Origin: an uncultured bacterium
Lineage (GTDB): Bacteria; Krumholzibacteriota; Krumholzibacteriia; LZORAL124-64-63
DNA length: 64,000 nucleotides
Reading direction: 5' to 3'
NCBI GenBank assembly: GCA_963727525.1
Contig: CAVSGO010000003.1
Location: forward strand, 256,001-320,000
The position numbers and the translations under genes were made by a program. The notes under the pieces were generated by a model. That model did no database searches and was not told the DNA's origin. It saw only the letters and a list, made by a program, of their open reading frames with translations. Positions 57 through 29,151 of this stretch are shown in pieces. Every line of letters begins with the position of its first letter. Position 1 is the stretch's first letter.

Positions 57-1443
57 GGGAGTCTCCTTGGCTGGCGGCGGGTACGGGCGCGTCGACGGCG
101 TGGGTGGCCACGACATCGCGATACCAAGCGACACTGTCCCGGGGGATGCGTCGCAGTGTCTGGGGATCGACGGCGTACAGCCCGAAGTGCTGGGTGTAGC
201 CGTAGCCCCATTCGAAGTTGTCCATCAGCGACCACACGAAGTACGCGTCCACCGGTACGCCGGCCGCGATGGCGCGATGCACGGCCTGCAGGTGGGAGCG
301 CAGGTAGGCGATGCGCCTGGTGTCGCGGATGCGGCCATCGGGATCGGGCGCGTCGTCATAGGCCGCACCGTTCTCGGTGATGGCGATGCGGGCGGGCCGG
401 TACTCGCGCTGGATGCGCACGAGGCTGGCGAGGAGGCCGTCGGGGTAGACCTCCCAGCCCATGGTGGTGCGCGATGGCGTGTCCGCGGGGGGCACCGCTT
501 CGGGCTGTCCGTCGGCGCCTGCGCGCATGACCACGCGGCTGTAGTAGTTCACGCCCAGGAAGTCCAGCGGTGCGGCGATGGCGTCCATGTCGCCCGGCTG
601 CACGAACGGCAGCTCGGGACCCGCCAGGTGGCCGCGGGCCACGCGGTCGGCGATCGCGTCGGCGGGGTACGTGCCACGGAACACCGGGTCGAGGTACCAG
701 CGGTTGAAGAAGCCGTCGAAGAAGCGGGCGGCGTCGTGGTCGGCCTCGCTGTCCGTGGCCGGATACGCCGGCGAGTGGATGAGCACGAGCCCCAGTTCGG
801 CCTGCGGCTGCTCGCGGCGGATGGCCGTCGTCGCGAAGCCGTGCGACAGCAGCAGATGGTGCGCCACGCGCAGCGCCTCGGCCGGGTCGCGATGGCCGGG
901 GGCGTGGTGCCCCTCCTCGTGGCCGAGCGTGGCGGCGCACCAGGGCTCGTTGTGCGTCACCCAGCGGCGCACGCGGTCGCCTAGGCGCCGGATCACCGCG
1001 CCGGCGTAGTCGACGAAGGCCGCCACCGTGTCGCGGTTCGCCCAGCCGCCGCGGTCTTGCAGCGCTTGCGGCAGATCCCAGTGGTAGAGCGTGGGCCAGG
1101 GTTCGATGCCGGCGGCCAGCAGGGCGTCGACGAGGGCGTCGTAGAAGTCGAGTCCCGCGGGGTTCACGGCACCGGTGCCGCCGGGGATGATGCGCGGCCA
1201 GGCGATGGAGAAACGGTACGCGCCCAGCCCGAGGTCGCGCATCACGGCGATGTCCTCACGCCAGCGGTGCCAGTGGTCGCACGCCCGCGCGGGCGTGGAG
1301 CCGTCAGCAATGCGGCCGGAGGTGGCGGCGAAGCGGTCCCAGATCGACTCCCCGCGCCCACCTTCGCGGCTGGCGCCCTCCACCTGCTGGGCCGAGGTGG
1401 CAGCGCCCCAGAGAAAGCCATCGGGGAAGCGGAGTCGTGCCAT
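40..1443 (-). CDS. GH1 beta-glucosidase
   Basis: FPDGFLWGAATSAQQVEG N-terminal signature, NEP acid/base, ITENG nucleophile, WSLMDNFEW. Confidence 0.95.
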   Translation of the reverse strand: MARLRFPDGFLWGAATSAQQVEGASREGGRGESIWDRFAATSGRIADGSTPARACDHWHRWREDIAVMRDLGLGAYRFSIAWPRIIPGGTGAVNPAGLDFYDALVDALLAAGIEPWPTLYHWDLPQALQDRGGWANRDTVAAFVDYAGAVIRRLGDRVRRWVTHNEPWCAATLGHEEGHHAPGHRDPAEALRVAHHLLLSHGFATTAIRREQPQAELGLVLIHSPAYPATDSEADHDAARFFDGFFNRWYLDPVFRGTYPADAIADRVARGHLAGPELPFVQPGDMDAIAAPLDFLGVNYYSRVVMRAGADGQPEAVPPADTPSRTTMGWEVYPDGLLASLVRIQREYRPARIAITENGAAYDDAPDPDGRIRDTRRIAYLRSHLQAVHRAIAAGVPVDAYFVWSLMDNFEWGYGYTQHFGLYAVDPQTLRRIPRDSVAWYRDVVATHAVDAPVPAASQGDSRVREP

Positions 1444-1504
1444 GTACGTCCACCCGTGATGCATCCGGTTCATCGCCAGCGGTCACGTGGGGCCCGAAAA
1501 TATT

Positions 1505-1527
1505 CTTTGTTCGGGCTCCGAACATAG
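1505..1527. promoter_or_regulatory. Palindromic operator copy 1 within the divergent promoter region
   Basis: CTTTGTTCGG-GCT-CCGAACATAG; overlaps TTGTTC-N17-TATGAT on + (1507-1535) and lies next to a minus-strand TTGACA (1552-1547). Confidence 0.8.
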
Positions 1528-1613
1528 TGTATGATGGGCACCGCCCTGTCAAGACTCCATTCGATCCGCGCCGGCACGCGCCGGGCGGGTCGCTCCCAGC
1601 AGGAGGTCCTTCC

Positions 1614-2589
1614 ATGACTCCACGCGCGACCGCGATCCTCGCCGTGATGGCCCTGGCCTGCGCCCTTCCGGCGGCCAGCTGGGCCATCACGCCCTATAGC
1701 CAGAACTTCGAGGGGCTCAACCAGGCCGATCCTGCCGCCCTCGCCAACGACGGCTGGGTGGTCTACGGCAACGTTTCCAGCCCGAGCGGCACGTATCTCT
1801 ACGGCTACGGACCCTTCCCCGCGCCCAACGACGGCAGCGGTTTCTGCCAGCTCACCACCGGCGAGGGTGGCACCGAGCAAGGCGCCCTGCAGCTCGTGGT
1901 CTACAGCGACTATCAGAACGCCGACCACGCCAACGGCAACATCATCGAGTCGAACGTCTACCATGAACAGACGATCGAAGCCGGCGACGTGGGTACCACC
2001 TGGACATTCGCATTTCAGGCCAAGCTGGGCAACATCGAGGGTGCGTCCACGGCCGCGGCGTTCCTCAAGACGCTCGATCCCGACAACGGCTATGCGCTCA
2101 CGAACTACATCACGACCGACATGACGAGCATCCCGGCCACGTGGAACGGCTACGAGGTGTCCATCACCGTCGACGCCAGCCTCGCGGGCCAGCTCCTGCA
2201 GTTCGGTTTCGTGAATACGGCCACCTACTACGAGGGCTCGGGCATCTTCTACGACAACCTCGACTTCCATCAGGGTGCCGACGTGGCCGTGCCCGACGCC
2301 ACCGAGTTCGCGGGCAACGCCTTGCGCCAGAATCACCCGAACCCGTTCAACCCCCGCACGGAGATCGATTTCTCCCTCGCGCGGACCGGCACCGTGTCCC
2401 TCGTCGGTGTACGACCTCGCCGGTCGCCGCGTCGCCGCCCTTGTGCAGGGCGACCTCGCCGCGGGCGAGCATCGCGTGGCCTGGGACGGCCGCACCGACG
2501 CGGGCGCAACCGCGCCCTCCGGACAGTATCGCTATGTGCTGCGCACGCCCGACGGCGTGGCCGCGCGCAGCATGGTCCTGCTGAAGTAG
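1614..2589 (+). CDS. Secreted protein of unknown function with C-terminal FlgD-Ig/T9SS-like domain; one extra base near 2401 (probable sequencing error, otherwise pseudogene)
   Basis: AGGAGG RBS, signal peptide, NHPNPFNPRTEIDFSL in one frame continuing as SVYDLAGRRVAALV...WDGR...MVLLK in another; close paralog of 6130-6852. Confidence 0.8.
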
Positions 2590-2596
2590 CGCCACG

Positions 2597-5500
2597 ATGG
2601 CCGGCCGACCGTTGCCCGCAAGGGACCCTTCTGCTGTCGTCGCGAGCTCGACGTCGCCCACTGGCGGCTTCGTCGAGCTCGACGGCGAACGGCACTACCG
2701 GATCGAGGCATACCACCGCCTCAAGCCGTTCCTCATGAGCCTGGCGAGCGACAGCGACCTGTGGATGTTCGTCACCTCCGGGGGCGGGCTCACGGCCGGC
2801 CGCGTCGATGCCGACGGCGCCCTCTTTCCGTACGAGACCGTCGACCGGCTTCACGACGCCCATCATCACACCGGGCCGATCACCCTGCTGCGCGTGGCGC
2901 GGCCCGACGGTGCCACGGTGCTGTGGGAACCGTTCACCGCCGTCACGGCGAATGACGCGGCGATCACGCGCCGTCTGGCCAAGAGCGCTCTGGGCAACAG
3001 TCTCGTGTTCGAGGAGATCGCGCGCGTGCTCGGCCTGGCGCTGCGATACCGCTGGTCGAACAGCGATGCGTATGGCTGGGTGCGCACGACGACGCTCGAG
3101 AACATGGGCGACACCCCGGTATCGCTCATGCTGCTCGACGGTCTGCGCAACATCTTGCCGTACGGAGCGCCAGTTGCGCTCTATCAGCAGGCCAGCGTGC
3201 TCGTCGATGCCTACAAGACGGCCGAGGTGGATCCCGACACCGGCCTGGGCGTTTTCGCCCTCACTGCGGGCATCACCGACCGCGCCGAGGCGCTCGAGGT
3301 GCTGCGCGCCAGCACCGTGTGGTGCCACGGTCTCGAGGGTGGCCGCGTGCACCTCGATGGCAATGTGGTGGCGGCGTTCCGGGCCGGCCGTGTGCTCCCG
3401 GCGCCGCCGACGCTGCACGGCGCGCGGGGGAACTACCTGGTGAGCGCCACGCTCACGCTCGCGCCGGGGGCGAGTGCGCAGTGGCTCATCGCGGCCGACA
3501 GCGGCCGCGATCACCGTCAGGTGGCGGCGCTGCGCCAGCAGATCCTCGGCGACCCCGACATCGACGCGCGCGTACGCGCGAGCATCGCCCACGACACGGA
3601 GCAGCTCCGGGATCGCGTAGCCAGCGCCGACGGCCTGCAGCTCACGCGCCGGCCCGAGGTCGCGAGCCACCACCTGGCCAACGTCCTCTTCAACGGCATG
3701 CGCGGCGGCGTCTTCGTGCATGGACACAGCATTCCCATGGCCGACCTGCGCGCCTTCCTGGCCGAACGCGGCCACCACGTGGCCGCGCGCCACGACGAGG
3801 CCCTCGCCGCCCTCCCCGCGACCATACCCGCGGCCGAGCTGCGCCGGTACGGCTTGGCGTCGGGCGATCCTGATCTGGCGCGCCTATGCCACGAGTATCT
3901 GCCCCTGTATTTCGGTCGGCGCCACGGCGATCCGAGCCGCCCCTGGAATCGCTTCGCCATCCGCGTGCGAGGCGCCGACGGCGAGCGCGAGCTGAACTTC
4001 GAGGGCAACTGGCGCGACATCTTCCAGAACTGGGAGGCGCTCTGTCTGTCGTTCCCGGGCTTCCTGCCGCACATCGTCGCGCGCTTCGTGAACGCCTCCA
4101 CCGTGGACGGCTTCAATCCCTACCGCATCACGCGCGATGGCGTGGACTGGGAAGTCGTCTCGCCCGACGATCCCTGGGGCAACATCGGCTACTGGGGCGA
4201 CCACCAGCTCATCTATCTCGTGCGCCTGCTCGAGCTGCTCAATCGGCACGATCCCGACGCTCTGGGCTCGCTGCTCACGGCGGGCATCTTCAGTTACGCG
4301 GACGTCCCCTATCGCATCCGGCCGTACGCCGAGATCCTCGCCAATCCCCGGGAGACGATCGACTTCGACACCGCGCGCGCCGCCCGTGTCGACGCGCGCG
4401 TGGCCCAGCGCGGCGCTGACGGCAAGCTGGTCGTCGATCGCGACGGCGCCATCCGGCGTGCCACGCTCCTCGAGAAGCTGCTCGTGCCCGCCCTCGCCAA
4501 GCTGTCGCAGCTCATTCCCGATGCCGGCATCTGGATGACCACCCAGCGCCCCGAGTGGAACGACGCCAACAACGCCCTGGCCGGCGGCGGCGTGTCCGTG
4601 GTCACGCTCTGCCACCTGCGCCGCTATCTGGCCTTCGTCGCCGACCTGCTCGAGCGCGAGGACGACGCCACGGTGACGATACCCGTGGAGATCGCCGACT
4701 GGCTCGCGCATATCGAGGTCGTGCTTGTCGAGCACGACGCACTGGCCGCGAACGTGTGCGACCCGCGCCGTCGCAAGCAGGTGATGGATGTTCTCGGCGA
4801 GGCCTTCTCGGACTACCGGACTCGCGTGTACGATCAGGGCTTTACCGGCGAAACGCCGCTGGCCTCGCGTCGCGTGGCCGCGCTGTGCCGGGCGGCGCTG
4901 CCGCTCGTGGAACGCAGCATCGCATCCAACCGGCGCGAGGACGGCCTCTATCACACGTACAACCTGCTCGCGTTCAGCGACGACGGATGCGGCGTGGCGG
5001 TGGTTCCCCTGGGCGAGATGCTCGAGGGTCAGGTGGCGGTGCTCGATGCTGGCGTGCTCGACGCCGCCGAAGCCCGCGCGGTCCTCGATGCGCTCTTCGT
5101 CAGCCAGATGTACCGGCCCGACCAGCACAGCTTCATGCTCTATCCGGCGCGCGATCTACCGGGTTTCCTGGCGCGCAACCAGGTGCCCGGGTCGCGCGTG
5201 CAGGCCGTGCCGCTGCTTGCCGCTTTGCTCGAGGTGGGCGACGTCTCCGTGCTATCCCGTGACGCCGATGGAATCCTCCGCTTCCAGGCCGATCTCGCCA
5301 CGGCGGACGATCTCGCCGCGGCTCTCGACGCGCTCGCGGAGCAGGCCGCGTGGGCCGACGCGGTGGCCCGCGACCGTACCGCCGTGATCGATCTGTACGA
5401 GACCGTGTTCGCGCACCGTTCCTACACCGGCCGCTCGGGCTACATGTATGCGTACGAGGGCGTGGGGTGCATCTACTGGCACATGGTGGCCAAGCTGCTG

Positions 5501-18576: not shown

Positions 18577-19584
18577 CTACTCCATCGGATAACGCAGGCC
18601 GCACTGCGCGCGGATGGTGTCCATCGTTCGCACGATGGCCAGGCTCTCGCGCAGGGGCATGATGTCCGACTCGCGGCGACCGGTGCGGATCAGGTCCATG
18701 AACGCCTCGGCCTCATGCGCGTAGCCGGCGCCGCGACTCGGCAGGTCCATCACCTCGTCGTCATCGCTTTCGCGCTGCACGACGATGCGCGTGGCGCCCC
18801 ACCAGGGCTGGACGATCCGGATCCGGCCCGACGTGCCCAGCACGTGCGCCTCGCGCGGCGTGTCCAGGCGCAAGCTCGCCGCGAGCACCGCCAGGGCGCC
18901 GTCCGCGTGGCGCAGCAGGATCGCAACCTCCTCGTCGACACCCGTCGTGCCGAGGTTCGCTTTCGCCTGGATCTCGGCCGGCGTGCCGCAGAGCATCGAG
19001 GCGAGCGTCAGCGGATAGACGCCCACGTCGAGCAGGGCGCCGCCGCCCAGCTCCAGTGCGAACAGGCGGCTCGTAGGGTCCAGCGGCGCGCGGAATCCGA
19101 AGTCGGCCATGACCAGGCGCACGTCGCCGATGGCGCCGGTTGCGATCAGCTCGCGCACGCGCACGATCGCGGGCAGGAAACGGGTCCACACGGCCTCCAT
19201 CAGGACGCGATCCGCCCGGGCGGCCGCAGCGATCATGCGCTGCGCCTGCGCGGCGTTTATGGCCAGCGGTTTCTCGCACAGCACGTGCTTGCCGGCGGCC
19301 AGGCAGAGCAGCGTGTGCTCCTCGTGGCCCACGTGGGGCGAGGCGACGTAGATGGCGTCCACGTCGGGATCGTCGACCAGGGCGGCATAGCTGGCATGGG
19401 CGCGGGGGATCCCGAATTCGGCCGCGAACGCGGCCGCGCGCGCACCATCACGCGAGCCCACCGCCACCAGTTCGGCGCCCGCGGCCTCGCGCAGCCCCGC
19501 GGCGAATTTGCGGGCGATGCGGCCCGGAGCGAGGATGCCCCATCTGATCGTGCGCCCGGTCTGTCCTGATCTTCGGCGTGACAC
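18577..19584 (-). CDS. Gfo/Idh/MocA family oxidoreductase
   Basis: IRWGILAPGRIA, GKHVLCEKP, GGGALLDVGVY. Confidence 0.92.
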   Translation of the reverse strand: MSRRRSGQTGRTIRWGILAPGRIARKFAAGLREAAGAELVAVGSRDGARAAAFAAEFGIPRAHASYAALVDDPDVDAIYVASPHVGHEEHTLLCLAAGKHVLCEKPLAINAAQAQRMIAAAARADRVLMEAVWTRFLPAIVRVRELIATGAIGDVRLVMADFGFRAPLDPTSRLFALELGGGALLDVGVYPLTLASMLCGTPAEIQAKANLGTTGVDEEVAILLRHADGALAVLAASLRLDTPREAHVLGTSGRIRIVQPWWGATRIVVQRESDDDEVMDLPSRGAGYAHEAEAFMDLIRTGRRESDIMPLRESLAIVRTMDTIRAQCGLRYPME

Positions 19585-19645
19585 GGTGTTTCCGTATACC
19601 TTGCGATTCTACTCGGTACCGCCCTGCTCGAGCGCGGCCAGCGTC

Positions 19646-20725
19646 TTACCGATCCAGGACCGCGAGCAACTCCTCGATGTTCCAATGTTCGGCGATGGAA
19701 CGCACCGAATCCCCGTCGCTGTTGGCCCGGTCCGGGTCGGCGCCCGCGGCCAGCAGCCGCTTGACCATCTCGCGCTGGCCTTCGAACAGGGCCCACATGG
19801 CTGGTGTGTTGCCAGCCGCGCCGACCGGATCGATCTCTACCCCGGCAGCCAGTAGCCGCGCGACCAGGTCGCTGTTGCCACCGATGGCCGCCAGATGCAG
19901 CGGTGTCAGGCCCAGGCCGGACCGCAGCGACTGATGAGCGGGATCGGCGCCGGCGGCCAGCAGCTGCCGGCCGACACCGGCATGGGCACAACGCCCGGCG
20001 ATCATCAACGGTGTGAACCCGATGGGGTCGGTGGCGTCGACCAGGGCACCGGCTGACATCAGCAACGCCACGACGCCTTCATCGCCGGCGGCGGCGGCCC
20101 GGTGCAAGGGCGAGCGGTCCACGCTGTCCCGGGCATCGACATGGCCACCGGCGGCCAGGGCGGCGCGCAAGGCAGCGGTGTCGGCGTCGGCGATCGCCGT
20201 GAACACCGCCTGATCGGCGGGTGCGACCTGTCGGGCCAGGCCCAGGCGTTCGGCCAGCGGCTGCAGCAGGGCCTCGTGCCCCCGTCGCCGGGCGACGTCC
20301 AGGGCATTGCCATGGCCGACCAGCGACGGATCCGCGCCCACCTCGAGCAGCATGGTGGTTGTGGCCAGGTAGCCGTAGTAGGCGGCCCAGTTCAGTGCGG
20401 TGTCGCCGGCCTTGTCCCGTGCGTCGGGGTCGGCACCGTGCGCCAGGAGCGTGCGGCCGACAGCCGTATTGTCGTGTTCGGCCGCCAACATCAGAGCCGT
20501 CGCGTTGTAGTAGTCGGCGTCGCGGGTTTCGGGCGACGCCCCGGCGGTGAGCCAGGTTTCGACGGCGGCCGGGTCGCCCGCGCGTACAGCGGCCAGGAGC
20601 GAGTCGGCCACGGCCACTGCAGAGGGTGCAGACTCCGTATCACTGGCCGCGAAGGCCGCGCCGGCACTTCCCAGCGCGATGACCAGGAGGCCGCCCAGAA
20701 GAGCCCGCCGCCGATCCCGCCTCAA
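19646..20725 (-). CDS. Exported ankyrin-repeat protein
   Basis: Repeated TALMLAA / TALNWAA / SPLHRAA / TPLMIA / TPLHLAA ... GADP units; signal peptide; TTG start uncertain. Confidence 0.88.
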   Translation of the reverse strand: MRRDRRRALLGGLLVIALGSAGAAFAASDTESAPSAVAVADSLLAAVRAGDPAAVETWLTAGASPETRDADYYNATALMLAAEHDNTAVGRTLLAHGADPDARDKAGDTALNWAAYYGYLATTTMLLEVGADPSLVGHGNALDVARRRGHEALLQPLAERLGLARQVAPADQAVFTAIADADTAALRAALAAGGHVDARDSVDRSPLHRAAAAGDEGVVALLMSAGALVDATDPIGFTPLMIAGRCAHAGVGRQLLAAGADPAHQSLRSGLGLTPLHLAAIGGNSDLVARLLAAGVEIDPVGAAGNTPAMWALFEGQREMVKRLLAAGADPDRANSDGDSVRSIAEHWNIEELLAVLDR

Positions 20726-21060
20726 GGGCTGACCCCAGACAAACAGAAACTGCCGAGTCCGATAAATTTCATGCCGAGATCTCCTGCTATTGTCCGCAGC
20801 GAATCACCGTGCCGGTGAAGATACGGGACCCATCCAGGAGATTCAACCGGATCCGCTGGCGCACCAGAGTCAGCCGTTCGTCGTTCCGCGGCGAGGGTAT
20901 CCAGCTCGTTCTACGGCCGGTCACGATCGGTTCCGTCAATGGAACGGTGCCGACCGAGCAGGGCGTCGTACGCGAATTCTCAGGTCTCGCCCTGGTGGGC
21001 GACCAACCCACGAGATCGTGATGATTGCGCGGGCGTGCGCGCCGTGACGTCGCACCGGAC

Positions 21061-21089
21061 TTGACTCCGGTCGCCAAAGGTCCGACAAT
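21061..21089 (+). promoter_or_regulatory. Sigma70-like promoter of the Sec/TusA/DsrE/MetE-like operon
   Basis: TTGACT-N17-GACAAT. Confidence 0.65.
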
Positions 21090-21119
21090 TCCAGAGGTCT
21101 CCGTCGACAGGAATGTTCC

Positions 21120-21206
21120 ATGCTCCGATTCCTCGTTGTCACCGGCTTCACCTGAGGCCGCCCGCTGGACGCCGCCCGGGTCTGGCAGGCGCGTCGTGTC
21201 GGCTAG
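21120..21206 (+). CDS. Putative 28-aa selenopeptide MLRFLVVTGFT-U-GRPLDAARVWQARRVG
   Basis: AGGA RBS 7 nt before ATG 21120; in-frame TGA 21153-21155; hairpin 21168-21195 with CCG-GGUC-UGG apex; TAG 21204-21206. Confidence 0.55.
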
Positions 21207-21313
21207 CTGACGAGGAAACCGTCTTCTCCCGCACACACCCCCCGCCCTTCCGATCCCGGCGTCCACCCCTGGGCGTGACCTCGAGGCACATCCTCCAACC
21301 GGGATCAGCGAGC

Positions 21314-21559
21314 ATGGCGGGCTATCCGCGACACTGGAATTTCGACGACGTCTACGACTCCGTCGACCGCGGCTGCGGCGATTTCATCATCGACCTGCGT
21401 CAGGTCGTGCGCGAGCTCGAGCCGGGTGCGGTACTGATGATCGCGAGCCGCGACGCCGGTGCGCCCGTGGAAATCCCGGCCTGGTGCCGCCTCACCGGTC
21501 ATACCCTCCTCGATGCTGAGCCTCCGTTCTACCTCGTGCGCAAGCGCGAGGGCACCTGA
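21314..21559 (+). CDS. TusA/SirA-like sulfur carrier protein
   Basis: DRGCG...LEPGAVLMIASRDAGAPVEIPAWCRLTGHTLL...YLVRK; CG instead of canonical CP. Confidence 0.85.
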   Translation: MAGYPRHWNFDDVYDSVDRGCGDFIIDLRQVVRELEPGAVLMIASRDAGAPVEIPAWCRLTGHTLLDAEPPFYLVRKREGT

Positions 21560-21583
21560 CCCTGTTTCCGAAAGGATAGCGAC

Positions 21584-21949
21584 ATGGCAAGCACATTCTG
21601 CGTCACGATCTCCGAATGCAAGACCAACGGCGACAAGGCGACCCTGGGTTTCGTGGTGGCGAATGCCGCCCTGGGCAGCGACAAGGACACGATGGTGTTC
21701 CTGAGTGCCGATGGCGTGTGGGCCGCAGTGAAGGGCGAGGTCGACAAGATCAATGAGGGCGACCCGTTCGCGCCCTTGAAGGACCTCGTGGAGAAGTTCG
21801 TGAAGAACGGTGGCAAGATCCTCGTCTGCTCGCCGTGCATGAAGAAGCGCGGGCTCACGGAGGCGAACCTGGTGGAAGGCGCGTCACCAGCCGGCGGCGC
21901 GGCGCTCGTGGAGTGGCTGTCCAATGGGTCGCCCAGCGTGGGGTACTAG
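21584..21949 (+). CDS. DsrE/DsrF-like protein
   Basis: VANAAL...VFLSADGVW...GGKILVCSPCMKKRGL (CxxC). Confidence 0.88.
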   Translation: MASTFCVTISECKTNGDKATLGFVVANAALGSDKDTMVFLSADGVWAAVKGEVDKINEGDPFAPLKDLVEKFVKNGGKILVCSPCMKKRGLTEANLVEGASPAGGAALVEWLSNGSPSVGY

Positions 21950-21950
21950 C

Positions 21951-22698
21951 ATGAGCGATCTCGAGAGCCTGCGGCCCGATCACGTGTTCGACGGCGGCGA
22001 TCTCGACTGCGGCAGCGGTCTGGTGCTGCTCATCCGCGAGCACATGCAGAACGGTGCCCGAGGGCGGCGTGCTGGAGATGCGCAGCGTCGAGGTCACGGT
22101 GATCGACGACCTGCCACCTTGGTGCCGCATGGTAGGCCACGAGTACCTCGGCCACCTGCCGGGCCAGACAGCGCAGCAGAAGCGTTACTTCGTGCGCAAG
22201 GGTGGGGGCGAGGCTGCGCGGGCCGAGCAGCAGGCGCTCGAGGACGACAAGGCGCGCGCCCGCGAGTTCGAATGGCGACTGCGGGCGCGCGCGTCCGGCC
22301 ACCTGGCCACCACGGTCTACTGCCGCAACTTCCAGTGGACCCTGGGGCAGTCGGCAAGTTTCGAGGAGACGGACCAGCACCCGTCGGCGGTGGAGGCGCT
22401 GCTGGGTGCCGTCGCCGCCGATCTGGTCACGGGGTTCGGTACGGCGTGCGCCCAGGCCGGTCTCGATGTGGACGACGTGGAGCTCACCATCCGCGGGCGT
22501 TTGCACGATCCCATGGCCTTGCTGGGCCTTTCCGGCGGCGACCCGTCGCTCGCGTCCATCGACGCGAAGCTGTTCGCGTCCACGTTCGATGATGAGGACC
22601 GCGTGCGCGCGGTGTGGGACACGGTGGTGGCGCGTTCGCCCCTGGTGGCCACGCTGCGCAAGGCCACCGCGATGGAAACCAGGATCGCCATCGTCTGA
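21951..22698 (+). CDS. TusA-like plus OsmC-like fusion protein; one extra base near 22050
   Basis: FDGGDLDCGSGLVLLIREHMQ continues in another frame as VPEGGVLEMRS...DDLPPWCRMVGHEY; C-terminal PSAVEALLGAVAADL...RSPLVATL OsmC-like fold. Confidence 0.78.
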
Positions 22699-22709
22699 GG
22701 AGGACGACC

Positions 22710-23861
22710 ATGTTCAACGTGACCCAGGTGGGGAGCTGGCCCCGCTCCCGCGACCTGTTGAAAGCTCTGCGCGCCAAGCAGAAGGGTGGGCTGAGCCGCG
22801 CGGAGTTCGAACGCGTGGCCGACGCGGAGGTGCGTCGCTGCGTGCAGCATCAGGTGGACGCCGGGGTGGATGTGATCGTGGACGGCGAGCACCGTCGCGA
22901 CAACTTCTACAGCTTCGTCACCGACAAGCTCGACGGTACCCGCCTCATGTCCCTCGCCGAGATGCTCGATACGGTGGACGACAAGTCTGCCTTCGAGGAG
23001 ATGCTCTCCACCCTCGACGTACCGGCCTCGGCCATCCGCAACCCCACCTGCACCGGCAAGCTGGCCAGGCGCGAACCGCTGGCGGTGGAGGAGCTGCGCT
23101 TCGTGCAGCAGCTCACGGACAGGCCCGTGAAGGTGACGCTCCCGGGTCCGTACCTGCTCACGCGATCGATGTGGGTGGGCGCGTTCAGCAAGGCCGGCTA
23201 CGGCGACAAGACCGAGCTGGGCGACGACGTCGTGCGCATCCTGCGCGAGGAACTCACCGAGCTTCGCGATGCCGGCGCGGCCTTCGTGCAGTTCGACGAG
23301 CCAGTGCTCACCGAGATCGTGATGAGTGAGGACTGCGACCGCCGCACCTTCATGTGAGCGACGCTTGCGACCCGCCGTGATGCGGGTGCCGAGCTGGAAT
23401 ACGCGGCGGACCTGATCAACCGCATCGTCGAGGGCGTCGACGGGGTGCGCACCGGTGTGCACGTGTGCCGGGGCAACTGGAGCCGCCAGGAGGAGGTTCT
23501 GCTCACCGGAGACTACCACGCCCTGTTGCCGGCGTTCACCGCGATGCAGGTGCGTCAGTTCGTGCTGGAGTACGCCACGCCGCGCGCGGGCGAGCTGCGC
23601 GTGGTGGGCGAGAGCCTGTGCGATCGCGAGATCGGCCTGGGCTGCGTGAATCCCCGCACCGACGAGGCCGAGGACCCGGCCACCATCGTGGCGCGGGCCG
23701 AGGAGGCCCTGCAGTACTGGCGCCCGGAGCAGATCTGGCTGAATCCCGATTGCGGCTTCGGCTGCTTCGCCAACCGCTGCGTGAACGAGGAGAGCCACGC
23801 CGTGGCCAAGCTGCGCAGTATGGTGACGGCGTCGCGGATCTTGCGGGAAAGGCACGGTTGA
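22710..23861 (+). CDS. Cobalamin-independent methionine synthase (MetE C-terminal barrel)-like protein with in-frame UGA, putative Sec216
   Basis: GGAGG RBS; VGSWPR, DGEHRR, KVTLPGP, VQFDEP, TFM-TGA(23355)-ATL, HVCRGN, VLEY, NPDCGF all in one frame, 383 aa. Confidence 0.85.
23363..23394 (+). promoter_or_regulatory. Bacterial SECIS-like hairpin
   Basis: GCTTG-CG-ACCCGC-CGTGAT-GCGGGT-GC-CGAGC; loop starts after 18 nt following the UGA and contains GU. Confidence 0.7.
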
Positions 23862-23924
23862 AGGGATTGGGGCGCACCAGGCGGCCCGGCGCAATCGGCG
23901 ATGCACGCGATCGCCGCTGCGAGC

Positions 23925-25769
23925 TCAGATCTGCTTCCGGAACCAGAGCACGATCCCGTACCCGAAGACACCAAACACGACAGACACGATGATGAGCATC
24001 GCCAGATCAAACCCCGACCCCGAGAGTATCTCGATACCCCAGCGTCCGCCCAACCTGATCGCGTGATCGTCGACAAGGCCCTTGAGATTTCCGACGAGAT
24101 CGAAGCCGAACGTACCGATTGCGATCAACCCGAGAAGATATGCGAGTCGGTTGTCATTGCGCTTGGCAATTCGCGCTTCACGATCCTGCGTCTGCTTCTC
24201 GACGTTGTCGACCATCGCTTCGATCGCGGCGACGTTGCGCGCGATGCCGCGCCGCGCCTCGAGAGCCTCGAACGTGTCCTTTTCGGTGTCGTATCGAAAT
24301 ACGTTGATGTAGCGCTTCTGCTGATAGTCGCTGACCTGCCGCCTGCGGAAGGCGTAGAAGAGTTCGGTCGCTGCGCGGAGATCGTGCTTCTCGTCGGCGC
24401 GAATCACCTCCCGGAGCAGGGACGTGGCGCTCCGCTCGTAGGCGCGCACGAAGAACTCATTGTGCATCGCGAGAGCGTGGATGAGAAACGCGTAGGGGCA
24501 GGTCCCGATCCAGTCATTGCCGGCCTCGAGGCTGCGGGAGCGAGACACGAACGTCATCAGTGCGCGAGGATTCGCGAAACGAATGAAGAAGCTCTCCTCT
24601 TCCTGTTCGGCCGTCGCCGGGTAGATCGGATCGAGGCTGTCGAGGACCTCGGAAGCATCCTGATTGATGAAGTCGATGATATTCTGGGTGAAGCCTGCAA
24701 GGAACAGATAGATCAGGTCTTCCTTGGCGAACTTCTCGATCTCGGCAAGGGGAAGTTTGACACGGGCGAGCCCGGAAGACTGGGCCGCGTCGCGACAATC
24801 CGTGACGAACTCCGGATACCGATCGAACGCATCCATCGTGACGCGGTCCATCCGCCTCACGCGAATCGGTTCACCGTGTTCACCCGGCCGGGACGGCGGT
24901 ACCAGCGCCTCGAAAAACTCGCGATCCTGAAAGAAGAACATGTAACGAGCGCGCGGCATCATCAGGCCAGGTATCTCGAGGAACGCGTCTTTCTCGATGT
25001 ACAATTCGAACGGGCTCGTGGCGGGAGGTCGTGACGCCGATGAATTGCGGATCCGGCGTTCCAGGTCCGAGAAGTCACGGTCGAATCGGGATGCGACCCA
25101 CGCCCACAGCGAGATGGTCTGGCCGCCGACAGGTTCACGCACGCAGACCGAATCCAGAGGCAGGATATGCGTCGGACGCGCCAGGACATGGGAGGCGCGC
25201 CCGTGCCCGCCGTAGCGAAATTCCTTGGGGGCGACGGCTTTCTGGAGCAAGCCTAGGCGGTAGAAATCAGCCGCCGAGTGCTCGTACGGTACCGAAAACG
25301 ACAAGTGGTAGGAAAGCGCGTAGGCGAGATGGACGTACCAGAATCGCCGCGCCCGCACCATGCGCACGTCTGGCTCTTCGAGATCGACCTCGAACGTCGT
25401 GCCCTCCGTCGTCCAGGTGATGGACCGCGGCATGTGCAACTCGAGTTCCTCGCCTTCGGGACGCCCCGAAACGTCGAGCAGAAAATCCAGGACCCGACCG
25501 TTACGCTCGCGGTTGGCGATATCGTTGAATAGCGGGTCCATCGCTTCCTGCAGGTCGCGAGTTCCGAGATACTCGCGGGGCGCGGGTGCTCCAGGGGCCT
25601 TGCCGCTCGACGATGCTTTTGGCATCCCCGATCGCGCCGGATCGCGATTCTCCGCGCTGAGGAATTCCTGGAACGTCGCCGGGAGTTCGTCGTGTCCGAT
25701 GTATAGCGAAATCGTGAAAGATAGTGTCCTGTCCGTACAGCTTTCCCATATCAGGCGAGCCTCGCTCAT
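23925..25769 (-). CDS. Hypothetical membrane protein with two C-terminal TM helices (CorA-like topology)
   Basis: GGAGG RBS before ATG 25769; soluble region, coiled segment, then NRLAYLLGLIAIG...LIIVSVVFGVFGYGIVLWF. Confidence 0.7.
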   Translation of the reverse strand: MSEARLIWESCTDRTLSFTISLYIGHDELPATFQEFLSAENRDPARSGMPKASSSGKAPGAPAPREYLGTRDLQEAMDPLFNDIANRERNGRVLDFLLDVSGRPEGEELELHMPRSITWTTEGTTFEVDLEEPDVRMVRARRFWYVHLAYALSYHLSFSVPYEHSAADFYRLGLLQKAVAPKEFRYGGHGRASHVLARPTHILPLDSVCVREPVGGQTISLWAWVASRFDRDFSDLERRIRNSSASRPPATSPFELYIEKDAFLEIPGLMMPRARYMFFFQDREFFEALVPPSRPGEHGEPIRVRRMDRVTMDAFDRYPEFVTDCRDAAQSSGLARVKLPLAEIEKFAKEDLIYLFLAGFTQNIIDFINQDASEVLDSLDPIYPATAEQEEESFFIRFANPRALMTFVSRSRSLEAGNDWIGTCPYAFLIHALAMHNEFFVRAYERSATSLLREVIRADEKHDLRAATELFYAFRRRQVSDYQQKRYINVFRYDTEKDTFEALEARRGIARNVAAIEAMVDNVEKQTQDREARIAKRNDNRLAYLLGLIAIGTFGFDLVGNLKGLVDDHAIRLGGRWGIEILSGSGFDLAMLIIVSVVFGVFGYGIVLWFRKQI

Positions 25770-25813
25770 GGGCGCCTCCACAGGTGTCGCTAATTCTGGC
25801 GGTCCAACAGTCA

Positions 25814-26731
25814 TCATCCGAGCGCATGAATCGCGTCGCGCAGATTGACCGGACGCCGAGGCGCGATCCGGCCGATACCGTCCGCTGTCGCGACACGCGC
25901 CAGAAGCATCGTCGGGTCGAGAAGGGGGATCTCCGTACCCGCGACGCACATGTCCGAGAGTAATTCGACCTGACGCCGCGCGACATCGCTATTCTCGATC
26001 GCCGCGCCCTTCAAGACCGAGATGCCGAAGAAGCCGCGGAGATGGTGTTCGAGGATGCACGCCGGCACGGTGGTTGCGGGTGCACCGACAACGGAATATA
26101 CCAGATGCGACTCGGCCACCTGCCCGGGCGAGAGCGGCGGCTGGATATAGGGAAAGTCCACGACACGGGCTCCGCGCCGGGCCCAGACACGCAGGCGATC
26201 GAATTGATCGAGGCCGGTGTACCTCGTGTCGCGCTCATAGGCTTCGGCGCTCATCGCAAACGGATCGTTTTGCTCGATGAACATCAAAGGACGTGTCTCG
26301 AATCGGGCCGAGATCGTCTGGCGAACGGCCGCGAGCATGGGCGTGAATCGGCCAGAGCCGCGGGCCGCCTCATCGATGTAGATGTAGTTGAGGTTTGCCG
26401 TGATAGCATGCTGGTACGCGATGGTGATGACGTTGGCACCACCGACACGAAGACCCGCCGCGATGTCATCGGCAACGAGGCAGATCTCGCTAAACGCACC
26501 GTACTTGGCCGCAAGTTCCTCGTATGCCGGCGAATCGTTCAATGCCAGGCACCGCTCGAAGCCGCTGACATCTTCCTTCTCGTCGGGGAGGACGAAAGCT
26601 CGATCGTAGCCGGCGTAGAATTCCGCGAAGACCTCGCTGCCCGGCTGGCTGGTCGCGTAAACCCGAAGGCCCTCTGCCGTCGTCAAGGCCCAGTCGCCAG
26701 CTGCGAGTCGCAGCGGTCTGGCGTGCGTCAT
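25814..26731 (-). CDS. GNAT-like hypothetical protein
   Basis: NLNYIYIDEAARGSG acetyl-CoA-binding-like motif; RVVDFPYIQPPL. Confidence 0.65.
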   Translation of the reverse strand: MTHARPLRLAAGDWALTTAEGLRVYATSQPGSEVFAEFYAGYDRAFVLPDEKEDVSGFERCLALNDSPAYEELAAKYGAFSEICLVADDIAAGLRVGGANVITIAYQHAITANLNYIYIDEAARGSGRFTPMLAAVRQTISARFETRPLMFIEQNDPFAMSAEAYERDTRYTGLDQFDRLRVWARRGARVVDFPYIQPPLSPGQVAESHLVYSVVGAPATTVPACILEHHLRGFFGISVLKGAAIENSDVARRQVELLSDMCVAGTEIPLLDPTMLLARVATADGIGRIAPRRPVNLRDAIHALG

Positions 26732-27063
26732 GTTCGTGGGTTCATTCCGCCGTGGTCTCCTGGGAGCCTGGCGCCCGACAGTCGGGCGCGGCCTCGCTCT
26801 TGCATTATGGCACAAAGAGGGCGCGACAAGGATGGACCATTTTCTCGCCCTCCGCCGGCGAACGTACCTTGCCTGGGACCAAACTCGCCATGGAGCGCCG
26901 CGTGGCCAGCTGCATGCCCTGCTCGTTCGGCGCGAAAATTTGGCGTAAATATTCCAGCATCTCCAGGATTCCGCCTCTCAACGGTACCGGCGCGGCTTCC
27001 GGTCTGTTACATTGGACCGTCCCCGACGACCGTCGACCCACCAAACCCGAAAGGTGCTCCGTG

Positions 27064-29151
27064 ATGCGTCTGAACCGTAATGCCCTGATCGCGCTGGTCC
27101 TGCTCGTCGCCGGCTTATTGCCGTATGCGCGCGCGCTGGCCGAGGACAAGGATCCGTATGCCTGGCTCGAGGATGTCGAGGGGAAGAAGGCCCTCGAGTG
27201 GGTGAAGAAGCGTAGCGACAAGGACACCGCCGAGCTCGAGAAGGTGCCGGAGTTCGCGTCCATGCACGAGGAGTTGCTGAAGATCTACAACTCGCGCGAC
27301 CGCATCCCCTTTGCGGGGATCGACGGGGCCTGGCTCTACAATTTCTGGCAGGACGCTGACCATGTGCGCGGCATCTGGCGTCGCACGTTCCTCGACTCGT
27401 ACGTGCAGGCCGATCCGCAGTGGGAGACGGTGCTCGACGTCGACGCCCTGGCCGAGAAGGAGGGCGAGAACTGGGTGTGGCACGGGGCCGAGGGGTTGCC
27501 GCCGGACTACAGCCGCTTCCTGGTCACGCTGTCGCGTGGTGGCGGCGACGCGGCCGTCACTCGCGAGTTCGACGCCATCGCCAAGGACTTCGTGAAGGAT
27601 GGCTTCACCGTCCCCGAGGCCAAGGCGGAGGTGTCGTGGAAGGATGCCGACACTGTCTGGATCGGCACGGATTTCGGCGAGGGTTCGCTCACGACGTCGG
27701 GCTATCCGCGCATCGTCAAGCTGTGGAAGCGCGGCACGCCGCTCAGCGCGGCGAAGACCGTGTTTGCCGGCGAGGAATCCGATGTGTCGGTTGGCGCCGG
27801 TACCAACGTCACGCCCGAGGGAACCTACGACGTGGTCTATCGTTCGCCGGCGTTCTTCCGCGCCACCAGCTATCTGGTACTCGGCGGCAAGCTCGTGAAG
27901 ATCGACGTGCCCGACGACGCGCAGATGCGCGGCATCTTCAAGAACCACATGATGCTCTCCCTGCGGTCCGACTGGACCGTTGGCGGCACCACCTATCCGC
28001 AGGACGCCCTGCTGGCCATCGATCTCGACCGCTTCCTGGCCGGCGATCGCGATTTCACCGTGCTCTTCCATCCCGAGGAGCGCGTGTCCCTCGACCAGGT
28101 GCGCACCACCCGCGACTTCCTGCTGCTCTCCACCCTCGACAACGTGCGTGGGCGCCTCTACAAGCTCACGCCCGGAGATAAGGAGTGGGCGCGCGAGGAG
28201 ATCGCCCTGCCCGGCCTGGGCTCGGTGGGCATCGGTTCCACGACCGACGTCGACAACACCTTCATGTTCACCTACAACGACTTCCTCACGCCGCCCAGCC
28301 TGTATCTCGTGCGCGACGGTGAGGAACCGCAGGCGATCAAGACCATGCCCGCGTTCTTCGACATCGACGGTATGGCGGTGAAGCAATACGAGGCCACGTC
28401 GAAGGACGGCACCAAGATCCCGTACTTCGTCTTCATGCCCAAGGGTTTCACGGCCAATGGCAAGAACCCGACGGTGCTCTACGGGTACGGCGGTTTCGAG
28501 ATCTCCCTCGAGCCCAACTACTCCGCGACCACCGGCAAGGCCTGGGTGAGTCGCGGTGGCGTGTACGTGCTCGCGAATATCCGCGGCGGTGGCGAGTTCG
28601 GCCCCAAGTGGCACCAGGCCGCCATGAAGGAGAAGCACCAGAACGCGTTCGACGACTTCATCGCGGTTGCCGAGGACCTCATCGCCCGCCACATCACGTC
28701 GTCCGAACACCTGGGCATCATGGGCGGATCCAACGGCGGCCTGCTCGTGGGGGCCTGCTTCGTCCAGCGTCCCGAGCTGTTCGGCGCCGTGGCTTGCCAG
28801 GTGCCGTTGCTGGACATGAAGCGCTACAGCCACCTTCTGGCCGGCGCGAGCTGGATGGCCGAGTACGGCAACCCGGACACCGACGACTGGAACTACATGA
28901 AGACGTGGTCGCCGTACCAGAATCTCGACAAGAACAAGACCTACCCCAAGGTCTTCTTCTACACGTCCACCCGCGACGACCGCGTGCACCCGGGCCACGC
29001 CCGCAAGATGGTGGCCAAGATGACCGACATGGGCAAGCCCGTGTATTACTATGAAAACACCGAGGGCGGCCACTCGGCCGGCGCCAACCTCAATCAGCGC
29101 GCCTACATGATGGCGCTGACCTACGCGTATTTCTGGAAGATGCTGCGGTAG
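27064..29151 (+). CDS. Prolyl oligopeptidase (S9A), exported
   Basis: Signal peptide; DPYAWLE, YGYGGF, NIRGGGEFG, GGSNGG (Ser), DDRVHP (Asp), EGGH (His). Confidence 0.95.
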   Translation: MRLNRNALIALVLLVAGLLPYARALAEDKDPYAWLEDVEGKKALEWVKKRSDKDTAELEKVPEFASMHEELLKIYNSRDRIPFAGIDGAWLYNFWQDADHVRGIWRRTFLDSYVQADPQWETVLDVDALAEKEGENWVWHGAEGLPPDYSRFLVTLSRGGGDAAVTREFDAIAKDFVKDGFTVPEAKAEVSWKDADTVWIGTDFGEGSLTTSGYPRIVKLWKRGTPLSAAKTVFAGEESDVSVGAGTNVTPEGTYDVVYRSPAFFRATSYLVLGGKLVKIDVPDDAQMRGIFKNHMMLSLRSDWTVGGTTYPQDALLAIDLDRFLAGDRDFTVLFHPEERVSLDQVRTTRDFLLLSTLDNVRGRLYKLTPGDKEWAREEIALPGLGSVGIGSTTDVDNTFMFTYNDFLTPPSLYLVRDGEEPQAIKTMPAFFDIDGMAVKQYEATSKDGTKIPYFVFMPKGFTANGKNPTVLYGYGGFEISLEPNYSATTGKAWVSRGGVYVLANIRGGGEFGPKWHQAAMKEKHQNAFDDFIAVAEDLIARHITSSEHLGIMGGSNGGLLVGACFVQRPELFGAVACQVPLLDMKRYSHLLAGASWMAEYGNPDTDDWNYMKTWSPYQNLDKNKTYPKVFFYTSTRDDRVHPGHARKMVAKMTDMGKPVYYYENTEGGHSAGANLNQRAYMMALTYAYFWKMLR

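Follow-up and report, generated by a model that had tools for sequence, protein, structure and literature searches.

At the head of an operon in the 64,000-nucleotide stretch of DNA analysed here (the window), which comes from an uncultured bacterium of the Krumholzibacteriota, lies a very short open reading frame (ORF) that meets an in-frame UGA and then a hairpin resembling a bacterial selenocysteine insertion sequence (SECIS). The operon behind it encodes TusA-like, DsrE-like, TusA/OsmC-like and MetE-like proteins. The same leader architecture is present at 28 of the 33 tusA/dsrE-type loci that could be assessed when all sources are pooled, and we hold with high confidence that a conserved UGA/SECIS leader is real. 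Comparison of the sequences suggests that this micro-ORF is a regulatory leader ORF that would use the recoding of UGA as selenocysteine (Sec) for its sensor, the UGA being either recoded or terminated, and we rate that explanation slightly better than an even bet. We infer the insertion of Sec at the leader UGA, the regulatory effect, its direction and its output mechanism alike.

It is important to realize that a single site of this kind proves little by itself. The leader is convincing because it is conserved. A preliminary description of this DNA had set as its own test whether a micro-ORF is conserved upstream of homologous operons, and the 28 loci answer that it is.

The leader in the window and its relatives

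All parts of the leader in the window lie on the forward strand. A sigma-70-like promoter, TTGACT-17-GACAAT, occupies 21061..21089, one such site being found where shuffled sequences lead to an expectation of 0.1. It predicts a transcript start about 20-25 nt 5' of the micro-ORF. Comparable TTGAC-17-xAxAAT boxes, judged by eye and unscored, stand at the equivalent place in relatives. Because the promoter is just upstream, the micro-ORF should be the first translated element of the transcript. A Shine-Dalgarno (SD)-like AGGA at 21109..21112 ends 7 nt before the ATG at 21120. From there the first part of the ORF, the ATG plus 10 codons (MLRFLVVTGFT, of which the terminal G-F-T is kept throughout the version of the leader that we call variant 1), runs to 21152. 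The in-frame UGA follows these 11 sense codons at 21153..21155 and is the proposed point of decision between Sec insertion and termination by release factor 2 (RF2). The read-through extension, 16 codons (GRPLDAARVWQARRVG), covers 21156..21206 and ends with the second stop, TAG, at 21204-21206. This anatomy of AGGA, ATG, 11 codons, TGA, 16 codons and TAG is exactly what the preliminary description had read. Its expectation that standard gene calling would miss the micro-ORF was also borne out. Rfam misses it too: a scan of the 8 kb from 19500 to 27500 returned no match at E <= 1, and the genuine SECIS of the MetE-like gene was among the things it missed. The idea that the ORF at 21113-21559 is instead an N-terminal extension of TusA was rejected, as the tusA frame is interrupted by stops between the leader and tusA in relatives (at +128 in L013, for example).

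The DNA of the leader is too diverged for a nucleotide search, so loci were anchored on the neighbouring proteins. A DNA search with the leader in 40 relatives matched 1 genome, and there only within tusA. The class genomes searched number 208; 19 of them have the DsrE-like gene, and 15 of those 19 have the leader. It is also present in 3 of 3 further distinct GTDB contigs, which were found with a TusA alignment, and in 10 of 11 additional assessable metagenome contigs. The plan common to the 28 tusA-type leaders is an SD sequence, a start codon, 5-11 codons, the UGA and the hairpin. This core spans at least 9 genera and 2 families and is far more conserved than the leader surrounding it. Of the 27 tusA-type leaders that were tabulated, 23 match a list of SD-like patterns 5-12 nt ahead of the start codon; L057, L058, L037 and L022 have no match to it.

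With three loci of a second operon, which encodes a double-cubane reductase and is taken up below, the leaders counted in this work number 31. Three candidates are omitted from the counts: a doubtful low-G+C leader in G021, L062, whose contig ends 86 nt upstream of tusA, and L048, a spurious 14-residue match. Covariance models R1 (built on the window's version of the leader) and R2 find no second copy in G000, the genome of the window, where the best other E values are 0.48 and 0.18. Hits in other genomes that scored no more than 31 bits were discounted as weak; on inspection the three from R1 (about 27-29 bits) have no UGA, and the two from R2 (29 and 31 bits) were set aside on score alone.

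The changes seen among relatives speak to how the leader is read. Just before the UGA there are synonymous changes in variant 1 (TTT in L017, ACT in L058, GGA in L060 and G157) and in variant 2 (CTA and TTG for Leu), which indicates that the leader frame is translated. Downstream of the UGA, residues may change where the RNA still pairs, examples being W to R, which turns a G-U pair into G-C, and V to D. This tolerance, together with a lack of codon periodicity in the extension, is consistent with a leader that works by being translated and not through its product.

What is kept past the UGA is the place of the next stop. The first stop is UGA in all 31 leaders, and in all 31 the frame continuing from it reaches its next stop 45-69 nt downstream (UGA in 24, UAG in 7). 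The first stop in frame +1 comes after anything from 55 to more than 500 nt and in frame +2 after 26 to more than 1000 nt, and only 13 of the 31 leaders in frame +1 and 12 in frame +2 have a stop before the downstream gene at all. The distances to the second stop by sub-lineage, 45, 48, 51, 54, 66 and 69 nt, are multiples of 3 apart, and the codon itself varies too. In most variant-1 leaders the in-frame second stop is a UGA supplied by a purine-rich motif that is conserved in the alignment of leaders; in the window it is GCUGACGAGG at 21206..21215. Here its UGA misses the frame by 1 nt, and the TAG that lies 4 nt upstream takes over as the stop. L018 belongs with the window in this respect: in these two the GCUGACGAG motif (GCUGACG) either has lost its UGA or holds it out of frame, and a UAG 4-9 nt upstream replaces it. 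The position of the second stop is selectively kept.

Four hairpins and a second operon

The leaders fall into four versions that are unrelated in sequence, yet every version has a hairpin with a loop of the N-G-U type at +22 to +30, counting from the U of the UGA. Variant 1 comprises the window, 12 other tusA-type loci, G157 and G135. It has G-F-T before the UGA and a hairpin of the form GCC-GCCCG-[K-G-W-Y]-YGGC-NGGC, with the G-U of the loop at +28/29 (+25/26 in L015). Variant 2, at 14 loci, has R-R-L, the hairpin CCCGGC-[GGUCC or AGUUC]-GUCGGG and its G-U at +25/26. Variant 3 (G018) has S-L-T and GGAGCCG-[GUU]-CGGCUCC, with G-U at +22/23, and variant 4 (G050, which belongs to another family) has R-A-T and GGGCACA-[GGUC]-UGUGUCC, with G-U at +29/30. 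To judge from these sequences, the features common to the four versions are those that define a bacterial recoding site, and little else.

The hairpin in the window, GCCGCCCG-GGUC-UGGCAGGC, lies at 21171..21190 and has a stem of 7 pairs with two bulges. Its loop (21179-21182) places a G at +28 and a U at +29, a spacing of 23 nt from the UGA. That spacing and the apex, CCG-GGUC-UGG, had already been reported and both hold. Two other early claims survive only in part. The F-x-U context was said to mirror that of the MetE-like enzyme, and so it does in the window (GFT-U against TFM-U), but not generally, since RRL-U, SLT-U and RAT-U are found elsewhere. The proposed motif F-x-[C/U]-G...ARR-x-G fares similarly, as the string actually conserved in variant 1 is G-F-T-U-x(3-4)-D-A-A-R.

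A published model of the bacterial SECIS (bSECIS) allows these hairpins to be judged by outside criteria. The Figure 2 legend of PMC13188914 asks for an upper stem of 4-16 bp that carries a loop of 3-9 nt, and for a minimum free energy (MFE) of -7.5 kcal/mol or lower; it also places the loop 16-37 nt from the UGA and requires a G at one or both of its first two positions, usually a G that G or U follows (PMC13188914). We read the stems from the MFE folds of +14 to +44. In all 31 leaders the loop falls within 3-9 nt, the spacing is 18-24 nt and the MFE lies between -8.3 and -14.4 kcal/mol. The G in the loop is present in the MFE fold of 30; in G135 it appears only in an alternative register. 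The loops seen are GGUC, UGUC, UGUU, UGAC, GGUCC, AGUUC and GUU. The leader hairpins also resemble the two genuine SECIS elements of the window's genome, those of the MetE-like gene and of SelD. When the hairpins are aligned, 97.8% of cells pair, versus 14-44% for slid controls, and five of the 7 hairpin pairs are invariant.

Two other pairings were noticed. A long-range helix between ACCGGC before the UGA and the GCUG of the second-stop motif is not relied on here: it shows no compensatory changes, and the pairing is broken in L015 and L060. The other is a possible pairing in variant 2 between the codons that precede the UGA and the SECIS-like hairpin (its loop and 3' arm), in which one pair covaries from GC to AU.

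The leader is not confined to one kind of operon. R1, scanned against a sample of 151 genomes of the phylum, also matches G157 (52.9 bits), where the leader reads MTLYLFLGFT-UGA-ARRVDAARVQASAV. The operon downstream of it encodes a double-cubane-cluster reductase (HGD-D/NF040772, 469 bits), an activase (TIGR00241) and an enoyl-CoA hydratase-like (ECH) protein. A UGA leader also stands at the orthologous loci of G135 (variant 1) and G018 (variant 3). The three loci are L086 (G157:C20) at 941-4124, L088 (G018) at 1489-3530, and L091 (G135). No in-frame TGA was seen in the reductase and activase genes of this operon, and with the query used no tusA/dsrE operon was detected in G157, G135 or G018. 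Since the module stands ahead of an unrelated operon, we would expect it to be a portable cis-regulatory module and not a substrate or carrier peptide for the TusA, DsrE and MetE-like proteins. Among G157, G135, G018, G050 and G021, SelB is found in all five and tRNA-Sec in four. Haft and Gwadz described a purely statistical association of double-cubane proteins with the selenoprotein system, and by their account no connection of these proteins to selenium metabolism was then known (10.1101/2022.07.06.499078).

The low-G+C genome G021 has something different ahead of its double-cubane gene. At L089 (about 2950-3010, reverse strand) an upstream ORF (uORF) of 5 codons, MRYYN, ends with UGA, and a second in-frame UGA lies two codons on. 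There follow a hairpin and then a terminator-like GCCUG-GUU-CAGGC with U6, and an AUG 2 nt past the first UGA opens a 14-codon ORF that spans this terminator. By its sequence this leader looks like a classical attenuator.

A proposed selenocysteine sensor and its rivals

The mechanism we propose can be summarized as follows. A ribosome would initiate at the ATG at 21120 and reach the UGA at 21153 after 11 codons. If the SelB.GTP.Sec-tRNA(Sec) complex is available, seated on the hairpin 18-24 nt downstream, the UGA would be read as Sec. The read-through ribosome would then melt the hairpin and continue 45-69 nt to the second stop, which abuts a C-rich, G-poor tract. If the complex is unavailable, RF2 would terminate translation at the UGA. 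The final position of the leading ribosome would decide whether transcription or expression enters tusA-dsrE-tusA/osmC-metE-like(Sec); in other genomes the operon so controlled would be that of the double-cubane reductase and its activase. A ribosome at the second stop could mask a rut-like tract or, in variant 2, disrupt the adjoining hairpin. In this way the leader would report the supply of Sec-tRNA and SelB to a downstream attenuation step.

Candidates for that step lie behind the second stop. The spacer between the second stop and tusA in the window (21207..21313, forward strand) is C-rich and G-poor, with a C/G ratio of 2.27 in its first 70 nt, and is a candidate Rho-loading (rut-like) tract; Rho is encoded in G000 (703 bits). 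After the second stop C/G is at least 1.3 in 28 of the 31 leaders, against 22% of background 60-nt windows. Variant 2 has a hairpin at or just after the second stop, whose sequence differs by sub-lineage with compensatory changes. The stop falls in the loop of that hairpin, 2 nt before it or 13-14 nt before it. In L021, the one locus tested, this hairpin passes a terminator scan. By analogy with the fdhF(Sec) gene of Treponema primitia, which is discussed below, the output is probably transcriptional attenuation that is relieved when Sec is inserted. We think it a good deal likelier that the operon is on when Sec can be inserted than that the switch works in the opposite direction, which is the alternative.

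Several observations weigh against a Sec-sensing leader and it is fair to set them out together. In the G+C-rich window 399 of the 1461 TGAs on both strands (27%) pass the bSECIS criteria as we implemented them, and for that reason the SECIS resemblance of any single site is weak evidence; a stricter version passes 86 of the 1461 (5.9%). The loop of the window leader lies 3-5 nt further from its UGA than those of the MetE-like and SelD elements do. Covariation within variants is not significant, with 187 of 500 and 50 of 500 shuffles reaching the observed score. Because the hairpin is nearly invariant inside each variant, the structural support rests on the comparison between variants. Variability by codon position after the UGA shows no periodicity that would favour any frame. 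There is no intrinsic-terminator-like site between 20600 and 21700 of the window, and a ribosome modelled at the first or the second stop has an inconsistent effect on the accessibility of the downstream SD, up in 4 and down in 4 of the 31 leaders. SelB scores over the cut-off in 189 of the 208 class genomes, and being near-universal it leaves the co-occurrence of leader and Sec machinery without discriminating power. Five loci keep the operon and have no leader, namely L016, L019, L027 and L029 among the class genomes and L059 among the metagenome contigs. Two of these, L016 and L019, still have the Sec codon in their MetE-like gene; L027 and L029 were not shown to extend to that position and L059 is outside the comparison. 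At L016 (G141, about 1040-1235) the promoter, SD and ATG of its relative L017 are kept and the UGA-hairpin module has apparently been deleted. What remains there is a 27-codon uORF without a UGA.

The last point on this side comes from variant 2. In all 14 of its leaders the Leu codon and the UGA create an overlapping GUG or AUG (cuGUGA, cuAUGA, uuGUGA), as at L024:2109-2271 on the reverse strand and L021:1084-1255, and in all 14 the +2 frame is open to a UGA that overlaps the tusA start (AUGA), despite length differences of 3 nt and 12 nt. To judge by this arrangement, the overlapping start could serve as a stop-restart relay, either instead of Sec sensing or as a layer added to it: ribosomes would terminate at the UGA, re-initiate at the overlapping GUG or AUG and translate on to the tusA AUG. 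Such a relay is one form of the rival that we take most seriously even though we consider it unlikely, an ordinary regulatory uORF that ends at the UGA, with the hairpin and the tract acting without selenocysteine. Its other forms are classical coupling or a Rho attenuator, and a site to which a protein or ligand binds. UGA is in any case the most frequent stop (24 of the 31 second stops), bSECIS-like hairpins follow 27% of TGAs, codon periodicity is absent past the UGA, and the uORF and terminator-like hairpin of G021 fit classical attenuation better than Sec. All of this suits an ordinary uORF. The open +2 frame of variant 2 is weak evidence, however, because about 60% of off-frames (16 of 26) are open for at least 116 nt by chance, and in variant 1 the relay is nonexistent, 6 of the 13 tusA-type leaders having stops before the gene in that frame. 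An ordinary uORF also leaves three things unexplained. The next in-frame stop lies at 45-69 nt in 31 of 31 leaders while the other frames show nothing of the kind, a UAG stands in where the conserved stop has slipped from the frame, and four unrelated versions all have a hairpin with an N-G-U loop at +22 to +30.

The evidence for read-through applies equally to a true small selenopeptide, 20-33 residues long and functional in its own right, whether as a selenium carrier, as an enzyme substrate or as a precursor resembling a ribosomally synthesized and post-translationally modified peptide. The residues just before the UGA are conserved as amino acids through synonymous changes, the operon encodes proteins of the sulfur/selenium-relay type (TusA, DsrE), and the prokaryotic selenoproteins predicted in PMC13188914 include small Sec peptides such as the selenobacteriocin TIGR04081. 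We nevertheless judge this reading improbable. The peptides differ from version to version (GFT-U-xxxxDAARV, RRL-U-xxRPVPAVRR, SLT-U-RRGREPVRL and RAT-U-GLRSRVG), a redox-type CxxU/UxxC motif is absent, and the 28-residue product of the window has no Pfam or NCBIfam match. There is thus neither a conserved peptide nor a family model around the Sec position, as one would look for in a small selenoprotein family. Past the UGA, the non-synonymous changes that preserve pairing (W to R, V to D) are tolerated. The preliminary description had left the choice between a Sec-sensing leader and a peptide that is substrate or carrier for the operon. We believe the comparisons favour the former, since the module is found ahead of two operons of unrelated function, the four variants share no conserved peptide, and the features retained past the UGA are RNA pairing and the place of the next stop, not the encoded residues.

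More doubtful still is an operator like that of selAB, in which SelB and its Sec-tRNA would occupy the hairpin and so repress or adjust expression while the UGA goes unread. The hairpin does fit the bSECIS model, and there is the precedent of Escherichia coli selAB (10.64898/2026.03.03.709296). However, such an operator would need no start codon and no in-frame UGA at SECIS distance, both present in 31 of 31 leaders, nor an SD or a constrained second stop. Variant 2 also has at least 34 nt between the hairpin and the downstream SD (to the tusA SD, about 35-45 nt), and in the other variants the gap is about 100 nt or more. At that remove (about 110 nt in the window) steric occlusion of the selAB kind is unlikely. 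Finally, a chance ORF and hairpin without function in a G+C-rich intergenic region would account for how common the single-site features are (27% of TGAs) and for a fold z-score of only -2.61 in the 221-nt window leader, but it is contradicted by conservation, by the four versions, by the two operon types and by the spread over at least 9 genera and 2 families, and we regard it as very improbable.

The operon, the genome and known systems

The first gene of the window operon (all on the forward strand) encodes a TusA-like protein of 81 aa at 21314..21559 (Pfam PF01206, 32.2 bits, above the cut-off). It is followed by a DsrE-like protein of 121 aa at 21584..21949 (PF02635, 59 bits) and, at 21951..22698, by a fusion of another TusA-like domain with one of the OsmC type (PF02566, matched in the frame 22054-22695). 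This fusion gene is split in the window by a +1 frameshift near 22047-22056 (CAG AAC G GTG CCC) and is a single uninterrupted frame in L013, L018 and L010. The frameshift is either an assembly indel at the GG run or a real disruption. The MetE-like enzyme (Pfam Meth_synt_2) at 22710..23861 has an in-frame TGA at 23355-23357 (U216) in the context RTFM-U-ATLATRRDAG, and it has a SECIS of its own, ACCCGC-[CGUGAU]-GCGGGU, with the loop at +22 to +27 and 18 nt from the UGA. All 15 loci that extend as far as the Sec codon, among them the window's own, retain this TGA. The enzyme matches no NCBIfam selenoprotein model, and the main text of a 2026 review of selenoproteomes contains neither PF01717 nor the words 'methionine synthase'. 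On the other side of the leader a divergent neighbour (19646-20725, reverse strand) encodes an ankyrin-repeat protein with strong Pfam Ank matches and a probable N-terminal signal sequence.

The genome of the window belongs to a Sec user, and elsewhere in it TGA keeps its usual role as a stop, for example at the end of tusA. It encodes tRNA-Sec (70.4 bits), SelB (302 bits) and a Sec-containing SelD; SelA was outside the search. SelD (L073, G000:C8:225636-226547, reverse strand) itself carries an in-frame TGA, in ...KSAG-U-AAKLAPGDL, with the SECIS CCAGG-[GGA]-CCUGG, whose loop lies at +24 to +26 with a spacing of 20 nt.

It is useful to ask how the proposed leader compares with known regulatory systems. 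The leader peptides of the trpL/hisL type sense amino acids. Like them, the leader described here is a short translated ORF that stands right behind the promoter and ahead of the first gene, and the progress of its ribosome would be tied to the supply of one charged tRNA and would set expression downstream. Unlike them, it would sense through one UGA codon whose reading depends on SelB and a SECIS hairpin, a failure to decode would lead to termination and not to stalling, and no classical terminator/antiterminator pair is evident in the window. Two other systems work at a stop codon. In tnaC, which senses tryptophan, a ribosome positioned at the stop of the leader hides the neighbouring rut site from Rho, and in the autoregulation of prfB the event at UGA senses RF2. 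As in both, an event at the stop codon of a short leader or early ORF may set downstream expression here, and the masked rut site of tna resembles the C-rich tract after our second stop. The differences are that Sec-tRNA and SelB would be what is sensed, and that neither system has a hairpin of the SECIS type. Short ORFs rich in cysteine codons are a further relative, the polycysteine ORFs of mycobacteria having been described as cysteine-responsive attenuators (10.1101/834739).

Among selenium-dependent systems the closest parallel is fdhF(Sec) of T. primitia, where selenium-dependent translation across the UGA/SECIS is reported to be required for downstream elongation of the transcript (PMC3892789). 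In both cases, if our reading is right, the selenium supply decides whether a ribosome passes the UGA/SECIS and thereby decides the fate of the downstream transcript. In T. primitia, though, the UGA/SECIS lies inside the regulated selenoprotein gene, whereas here it lies in a dedicated leader ORF of 20-33 codons ahead of whole operons, and in one of these operons neither of the first two genes was seen to encode a selenoprotein. The balance of recoding and termination at UGA in E. coli is described as depending on the selenium supply (PMC4513850). At selAB of the same species SelB.GTP.Sec-tRNA is reported to bind a SECIS-like element 3 nt from the selA SD and to repress selAB (10.64898/2026.03.03.709296). 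The resemblance is that a SECIS-type hairpin in an mRNA leader may be put to regulatory use by SelB in its Sec-charged complex. No UGA is decoded at the selAB element, whereas all 31 of our leaders have an in-frame UGA at decoding distance in a translated uORF, and the hairpin is not adjacent to the SD of the regulated gene. The leader also departs from ordinary hosts of a bSECIS, in that its ORF is a 20-33 codon leader and not an enzyme, and its peptide is unconserved between variants.

The known cases of bacteria sensing their selenium status and adjusting gene expression to it are the SelB operator on selAB and the truncation of the transcript inside fdhF(Sec). No Sec-sensing or Sec-decoding regulatory leader ORF was found described in searches of the main text of openly accessible papers, and the word 'leader' is absent from the 2026 review of prokaryotic selenoproteomes. 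On the comparisons presented here we see an even chance that these leaders are the first selenocysteine-sensing attenuators, which would switch whole operons according to whether the ribosome reads through or terminates. If so, they would represent a new type of attenuator and a compact natural part for a selenium biosensor. Searching for such leaders would also become a route to selenium-related genes that have no Sec codon of their own, such as the double-cubane reductases found here. The module would be the first regulatory link between selenium status and the double-cubane enzymes, and its presence ahead of both operons would define a selenium regulon in the Krumholzibacteria.

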